Positions 55,701 through 55,980 of a stretch of DNA of 64,000 nt are shown piece by piece (positions within the stretch are counted from its first letter, which is position 1; each line of letters begins with the position of its first letter). This DNA comes from Escherichia coli (GTDB lineage: Bacteria; Pseudomonadota; Gammaproteobacteria; Enterobacterales; Enterobacteriaceae): assembly GCF_003334405.1 (NCBI RefSeq), contig NZ_QOWM01000008.1. One strand, 5' to 3'. The notes below the pieces were generated by a model. The model was not told where the DNA came from and made no database searches. It saw only the letters and a list, made by a program, of their open reading frames with translations. Both the position numbers and the translations under genes were made by a program.

Positions 55701-55948
55701 AATATTAAGGGATTTTATGTAAAGAGGCTATCTTACTAATATTTAATGACATTTGCCATTACCGTTTGTGTTCAGGGGTCGTAATGAGGGCCGTGTGGTT
55801 GGTCGTTGAACAGGTGACGTCGCCATCTGTTCAACATTCGTACCCGTGATTTCTCTATAACTATAACTCACAGAACAACTTAGCGAGGAGCAGAGCGGTA
55901 CGATCGTGAGAAACCCATTAAAGCACGCTGCAGTGCGTGTCATTGTTA

Positions 55949-55980
55949 GCCAGATGCGGCGTGAACGCTTTATCCGGACA
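55949..55980. repeat. Degenerate REP (palindromic unit)-like element downstream of ymjA
   Basis: gccagatgcggcgtgaacgctttatccggaca resembles the REP consensus gccggatgcggcgtgaacgccttatccggcctac. Confidence 0.45.

Follow-up and report, generated by a model that had tools for sequence, protein, structure and literature searches.

The spacer between ymjA and sapA of Escherichia coli contains two unrelated and ordinary features, a REP unit in the 3' UTR of ymjA and a dyad that belongs to the transcribed 5' leader of sapA. In a first-pass annotation of this DNA the dyad had been put forward as a candidate operator upstream of sapA, a proposal that is not supported in that form: the published transcription starts at 55848 and 55853, together with a conserved -10 hexamer, place the dyad within the sapA transcript, and other Escherichia do not keep its symmetry, which is also weakened in B2-type E. 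coli. Probably the dyad is a lineage-specific quasi-palindrome whose stem-loop in the leader matters little or not at all for regulation, with the REP standing beside it as an ordinary 3' UTR unit. Both features are of well-known kinds and lie in the best-studied bacterial genome.

The DNA analysed (hereafter the window) is a stretch of 64,000 nt equivalent to coordinates 1301411-1365410 of E. coli K-12 MG1655; adding 1301410 to a window coordinate gives the NC_000913.3 coordinate, and the gene order agrees with that of NC_000913.3 1355000-1362000. The 411 nt around the ymjA-sapA features are 100% identical to K-12 and are present in 5422 of 5426 complete E. coli genomes; seven matches to the spacer in the E. 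coli genome collection fall in records that carry a plasmid label. By annotation SapBCDF exports putrescine, and the puu genes are adjacent. The genes and the spacer are arranged as follows:

puuP, 56392-57831, minus strand, from the annotation
ymjA coding sequence (DUF2543), 56013-56258, minus strand, stop codon at 56013-56015, with its own transcription start at 56289
ymjA-sapA spacer, 55701-56012, 312 nt
sapA coding sequence, gene 1 of sapABCDF, 54057-55700, minus strand, ATG at 55700

The sapA transcription start

Two published tables locate the start of the sapA transcript. In the Kim et al. table, the start is listed at NC_000913.2 1355282 with 2 reads and a 148-nt 5' UTR; the accompanying upstream string CCGCTCTGCTCCTCGCTAAGTTGTTCTGTGAGTTATAGTTATAGAGAAATC maps by sequence to window 55848, and the promoter string CCGCTC...GAGAAATC was placed directly on the window sequence (Kim et al. 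2012, PMC3415461). The second table puts the start at NC_000913.2 1355287, equivalent to window 55853, gives it a value of 659 together with the code DS, and makes it the head of a sapABCDF-ycjD unit (Cho et al. 2014, PMC3923258); we read the code DS as sigma-70 plus sigma-S. Both tables come from the same laboratory and their starts lie 5 nt apart, that of Kim et al. being supported by only 2 reads. The resulting promoter and leader features are:

sapA transcription starts, 55853 (Cho et al. 2014) and 55848 (Kim et al. 2012), minus strand, with 5' UTRs of 153 or 148 nt, respectively
sapA -10 hexamer TATAGT, 55860-55865, minus strand, positions -12 to -7 from the start at 55853
31-nt quasi-palindrome (the dyad), 55805-55835, minus strand, with 9-bp perfect outer arms at 55805-55813 and 55827-55835 and 13 of 15 pairs overall, sapA leader positions +19 to +49

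A -10 hexamer of the form TATAGT, TATATT or TATACT is kept in most of 28 aligned loci of like upstream architecture from Escherichia, Citrobacter, Klebsiella, Raoultella and their relatives, and because the two start tables are joined by this conserved -10, we consider the sapA start at 55848/55853 reasonably secure. The promoter carries no recognisable -35, the hexamer at 17-bp spacing being CCTCGC. A promoter scan of the spacer under a 9/12 rule called no site, having missed the real sapA promoter because of the lack of a -35. In Escherichia the -10 region consists of a tandem TTATAG-TTATAG (window 55854-55866, minus strand), and a single TATATT or TATACT is found in Citrobacter and Klebsiella; the two starts 5 nt apart might reflect two overlapping -10 hexamers within the tandem.

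Genomic SELEX had led to another proposal for the sapA promoter, the hexamers ATGACA-15-TTTAAT at window 55943..55917 on the minus strand (Shimada 2014), which do not agree with the start-supported promoter (-10 TATAGT, start at 55853). We reject these hexamers, which lie about 60 nt upstream of the mapped starts and are not conserved, being split by a 13-nt insertion in the E. whittamii locus (L003) and in a further Escherichia locus (L004) and deleted in Escherichia sp. MOD1-EC7003 (L002). Additional starts lie inside sapA, upstream of sapB, at NC_000913.2 1354061 and 1353927 (window 52627-52761), where they head a sapB-ycjD unit in the tables of Cho et al. and Kim et al. (PMC3923258, PMC3415461); transcription of sapBCDF may be independent of sapA.

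Since the starts at 55848 and 55853 are both upstream of the dyad, the dyad is transcribed, occupying positions +19 to +49 of the 153-nt leader, and is not upstream promoter DNA. Its assignment is corrected here to the sapA 5' leader. The first-pass annotation had itself named a sapA start upstream of the dyad as one half of the outcome that would count against an operator, and promoter mapping returned just such a start; of its two proposals for the spacer, the upstream operator falls and the REP, discussed next, stands.

The REP unit and other hairpins near ymjA

A degenerate REP had been proposed downstream of ymjA, and the match to consensus, the copy number and the predicted hairpin uphold it. 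The unit and a weaker hairpin nearby are placed as follows:

single REP unit, 55949-55984, plus strand (consensus orientation), 36 nt, with its complement carried by the ymjA mRNA 28 nt past the stop
weak 5-bp hairpin CACGC/GCGTG followed by CUUUAAU, 55924-55939, minus strand, overlapping the hexamers of Shimada 2014

The unit, GCCAGATGCGGCGTGAACGCTTTATCCGGACAACGA, agrees with the published consensus GCCGGATGCGGCGTGAACGCCTTATCCGGCCTACGA (PMC12306157) at 32 of 36 positions, where the alignment recommended as a check might have found no REP family match, and it is the only match to that consensus in the whole window at up to 30% mismatch. In 5421 E. coli records, a 40-nt query covering it matches 40 or more places in each genome. 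E. coli carries several hundred REPs. As RNA the unit folds into a hairpin of -13.3 kcal/mol (z -2.1), and it gives the best Rfam match in the region, a sub-threshold 21.9 bits (gathering score 59.5) to naRNA4, a family that we take to be REP-derived. All of the traits by which REPs are recognised (PMC12306157) are found here: consensus sequence, multiple copies, a stem-loop, short length (about 14-40 nt), an extragenic position, and location at the 3' end of the transcribed strand. As only a single REP unit is found in the spacer and in the window, it does not constitute a BIME. It is thus a genuine, slightly degenerate, ordinary REP in the ymjA 3' UTR.

Compared with the main E. coli REP consensus ('motif 1' or Y type), the ymjA unit is alike in being a multicopy, extragenic, imperfect palindrome of about 36 nt that matches at 32 of 36 positions and lies shortly past a stop codon on the transcribed strand. 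It differs in four substitutions, two of which weaken the stem, and in standing alone rather than in a BIME cluster. Additionally, its start 28 nt past the stop puts it outside the 15-nt window in which REPs have been linked to translational down-regulation. The REP is present in E. whittamii and in L004 and missing in L002, from which about 73 nt are gone, and such polymorphism for presence and absence among Escherichia is the behaviour expected of these repeats.

REPs act as barriers to 3' exonucleases (PMC12306157), and by analogy the stem-loop in the ymjA transcript would block 3'-to-5' exonucleases and protect the ymjA 3' end. The gene is listed as a monocistronic unit (Cho et al. 2014, PMC3923258), from which it follows that ymjA transcripts end somewhere in the spacer; most likely the REP would mark the end of this unit, just before the sapA promoter. 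No intrinsic terminator was predicted for ymjA in a scan of 55500-56400. The weak hairpin at 55924-55939 was not called by the terminator scan and is not conserved in other Escherichia, and a folding energy of -7.7 kcal/mol (z -0.5) is predicted for the 41 nt that include it; it could make a marginal contribution to ymjA 3'-end formation. A separate and much more stable hairpin (-32.7 kcal/mol, z -4.8) occupies the puuP-ymjA spacer at 56337-56391 on the minus strand, just past the puuP stop and with no U tract after it; the sequence at its 5' end, GTCGGATGCG, is similar to a REP head, and the ymjA start at 56289 is just downstream.

Sequence, alleles and conservation of the palindrome

The dyad reads GTTGAACAG-(13 nt)-CTGTTCAAC and, as originally described, is a 9-bp repeat situated 105-135 nt upstream of the sapA ATG (55700); the coordinates first given for it, 55804-55834, have to be moved one base rightward, to 55805-55835. 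The bare 9-bp dyad is not rare, in that the window holds 15 perfect 9-bp dyads with spacers of at most 20 nt, against 5.0 +/- 2.3 in dinucleotide shuffles. The symmetry extends inward, however, to 15-nt arms that are complementary at 13 of 15 positions around a single central base, GTTGAACAGGTGACG-T-CGCCATCTGTTCAAC. Near-palindromes of 13/15 are expected only about 0.5 times per 64-kb shuffle (gaps of 0-7 nt summed), which makes the extended palindrome more than a chance occurrence. Several other near-palindromes of the window are intergenic. The octamer TTGAACAG occurs 8 times in the whole window against 2.4 expected from shuffles, and the dyad half-site is thus a word generally over-represented here. 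The 61 nt around the dyad are found at one place per E. coli genome, on which ground we reject the dyad as a dispersed repeat or the end of a mobile element.

Within E. coli the palindrome is polymorphic. Exact matches to the 61-nt stretch in 5423 E. coli records gave the following alleles:

K-12 allele, 13 of 15 pairs, 1655 records
single T-to-C allele, 14 of 15 pairs, 1653 records
O157:H7-type allele, perfect palindrome with 15 of 15 pairs (31 nt), 732 records (about 13%)
B2 (JJ1886)-type allele, 7 of 9 arm pairs, 1045 records (about 19%)

The 9-bp arms are intact in about 75% of E. coli genomes. What distinguishes the K-12, T-to-C and O157 alleles lies exactly at the mismatched positions and brings the repeat nearer to perfection: the T of K-12 and the alternative C both pair with G (as G-U and G-C), and in O157 an A.C mismatch has become A-U. 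Predicted stabilities of the leader hairpin follow suit, at -18.3 kcal/mol for K-12 (z -2.1), -21.0 for the T-to-C allele, the commonest non-K-12 allele (z -3.6), and -25.7 for O157 (z -5.1); the corresponding values are -14.0 for B2, -11.4 for strain N96, -10.4 for L004 (z about 0), -13.0 for E. whittamii and -16.9 for L002. Across alleles and species the z-scores range from -5.1 to +0.6.

For comparison across genera, 80 sapA loci were taken, with one genome per species. No match to the dyad, at up to 2 substitutions per arm, was found in the 76 non-Escherichia sapA loci scanned. Even among Escherichia the two arms diverge separately: the sapA-proximal arm CTGTTCAAC becomes CAGTGCAAC in L004 (2 mismatches) and CAGTGCGAC in E. 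whittamii (3), the promoter-proximal arm becomes GTTGAACTG in L002 (1 change), and none of these changes is compensated. In an alignment of 11 sequences, of which 10 are distinct and the power is accordingly low, two-sided change is seen in none of 13 pairs, the variation in 6 consists solely of broken pairing, and no covariation measure exceeds its shuffles. A scan against Rfam 15 at E-values up to 10 returned no match overlapping the dyad. The dyad is thus without the signatures of a conserved operator or of a conserved RNA structure.

ymjA adjoins sapA in only the three Escherichia loci among the 80, and the enterobacterial sapA upstream regions fall into two architectures. In one, seen in Salmonella, Enterobacter, Kosakonia, Yokenella and others, what we read as the 3' end of pspF directly adjoins a short promoter of sapA; in the other, Escherichia, the Citrobacter freundii group and Klebsiella have about 185 nt of promoter and leader in common. 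Conserved blocks within this shared region are the -10 hexamer, the sequence GGTAYGAATgTTGAaC, which contains the promoter-proximal arm, and a proximal block at 55726-55767. The promoter-proximal half of the dyad (GAATGTTGAAC) is the sole part of it within a conserved block, and the sapA-proximal arm sits in the least conserved stretch of the leader in the 28-locus alignment. Two further leader features are:

proximal leader block AAACGGTAATGGCAAATGTCATTAAATATTAGTAAGATAGCC, 55726-55767, minus strand, 26-67 nt upstream of the sapA ATG
upstream ORF of 21 codons (MLNRWRRHLFNDQPHGPHYDP), 55837..55772, minus strand, its ATG overlapping the first base of the promoter-proximal arm of the dyad

Nothing else upstream of sapA is as well conserved across Escherichia, Citrobacter, Klebsiella and Raoultella (28 loci) as the proximal block. 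It may represent either a leader element or a second promoter (TGGCAA-17-TAAGAT); the published tables list no start site in it. In E. whittamii and L004 the 21-codon upstream ORF is unchanged in frame and length, but it was rejected as a functional element, since its fourth codon is a stop in B2-type E. coli and L002 and it is not retained in Citrobacter. A second upstream frame of 27 codons, starting in or next to the promoter-proximal arm, is broken in L004 and was likewise set aside, as was pairing of the GcvB sRNA with the C/A-rich stretch past the dyad, which was poor by eye and for which no link was found in the literature. The 13-nt insertion TTGTCAGCAATCY of E. whittamii (L003:2176-2500) and L004 (L004:2177-2500) is located past the REP and ahead of the sapA promoter, opposite window 55924-55945; L002, besides the deletion of about 73 nt that includes the REP, also lacks 13 nt further downstream.

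Interpretation of the palindrome

In the sapA mRNA, the dyad is predicted to fold as a leader stem-loop whose energy varies among E. coli alleles from about -18 to -26 kcal/mol. Replication template switching makes quasi-palindromes more perfect, and the allelic series of 13/15, 14/15 and 15/15 would fit such templated 'correction' of an imperfect inverted repeat, a neutral mutational process. The quasi-palindromic template-switch hotspots of the E. coli thyA and lacZ reporters offer a parallel: there, as here, an imperfect inverted repeat has alleles that differ at its mismatched positions, and two of the dyad changes perfect the repeat (13, 14 and 15 of 15). The likeness ends with the B2 and N96 alleles, which move away from perfection. 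Two observations sit uneasily with a neutral origin, namely that the extended palindrome is improbable on base composition (about 0.5 expected per window), and that intact arms in about 75% of genomes, along with 732 perfect palindromes, may stem from selection in E. coli instead of mutation bias. From the sequence comparisons, we infer little or no regulatory function for the palindrome.

Alternatively, the stem-loop might be a functional RNA element near the 5' end of the sapABCDF mRNA, recently acquired in E. coli, which would tune stability, processing (e.g. by RNase III) or downstream folding and might respond to polyamines. The dyad is indeed transcribed according to the published starts, its hairpins are strong in the commonest non-K-12 allele (z -3.6) and in O157 (z -5.1), the K-12 T/C and O157 changes maintain or gain pairing, and the arms persist in about three quarters of E. 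coli genomes. We nonetheless think this role unlikely, if worth keeping in mind: no pair covaries on both sides, pairs are lost in B2, N96, E. whittamii and L004, no Rfam family covers the stem, and other genera with a like leader architecture do not have it. Like the ompA 5' UTR hairpin, the sapA stem-loop is strong and lies close to the 5' end of a transcript whose leader is long, but the sapA stem is not conserved and is preceded by 18 unpaired nt, and hence is not a 5'-terminal protective hairpin; about 100 nt also separate it from the ribosome-binding site.

Operators downstream of a transcription start exist elsewhere, lacO1 being an example, and the dyad at +19 to +49, with its perfect 9-bp half-sites, is at a possible position for a roadblock by a dimeric repressor that would block elongation or escape from the open complex. 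PuuR is one candidate, considering that SapBCDF is annotated as a putrescine exporter and neighbours the puu genes, and the left half-site CGAATGTTGAACAGA matches a PuuR-box-like sequence of the puuA-puuD spacer at 11 of 15 positions. This best match is equalled or beaten by 13% of shuffled spacers, however, and is not significant; the motif comparison covered PuuR-like boxes only, using a PuuR consensus and boxes read from the puuA-puuD spacer. More generally, neither the sister species nor about 19% of E. coli genomes keep the second half-site, and the regions compared (L002, L003, L004, B2-type E. coli and other genera) do not conserve both half-sites together. The 22-bp centre-to-centre spacing is odd for 9-bp half-sites, the NC_000913.3 table (here coding sequences only, and without bearing on REP annotation) lists no regulatory feature, and our literature search found no paper tying a regulator to sapA. 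Set against lacO1-type sites, the dyad shares their symmetry and their location shortly after +1, and departs from them in half-sites that are not co-conserved, in unusually wide spacing and in having no known cognate protein. A downstream operator is, on balance, improbable. We give slightly less credence still to a recent, Escherichia-only switch that would tie sapABCDF to polyamine status, whether through an allele-tuned stem-loop, strongest in O157 and weakest in B2, or through a downstream operator for a regulator of the puu cluster. The least probable of the readings makes the dyad a terminator or 3'-end hairpin for read-through from puuP and ymjA: a stable hairpin does lie on the ymjA strand 178 nt past the ymjA stop, but it is followed by CGACCAACC rather than a U tract, the scan of 55500-56400 finds no terminator-like site, and such a terminator would also end sapA transcripts, whose published unit runs from sapA to ycjD. 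The lack of a U tract and the published sapA-ycjD unit together effectively exclude this role.

The reading we prefer thus remains a lineage-specific quasi-palindrome in the sapA leader, and its overall weight for the biology of the locus is small. If the hairpin did affect sapABCDF expression, strain alleles would be expected to yield differing levels of the putrescine exporter; nothing here indicates such an effect. As a minor curiosity, the imperfect-to-perfect series found among E. coli strains may represent a natural example of quasi-palindrome 'correction'.
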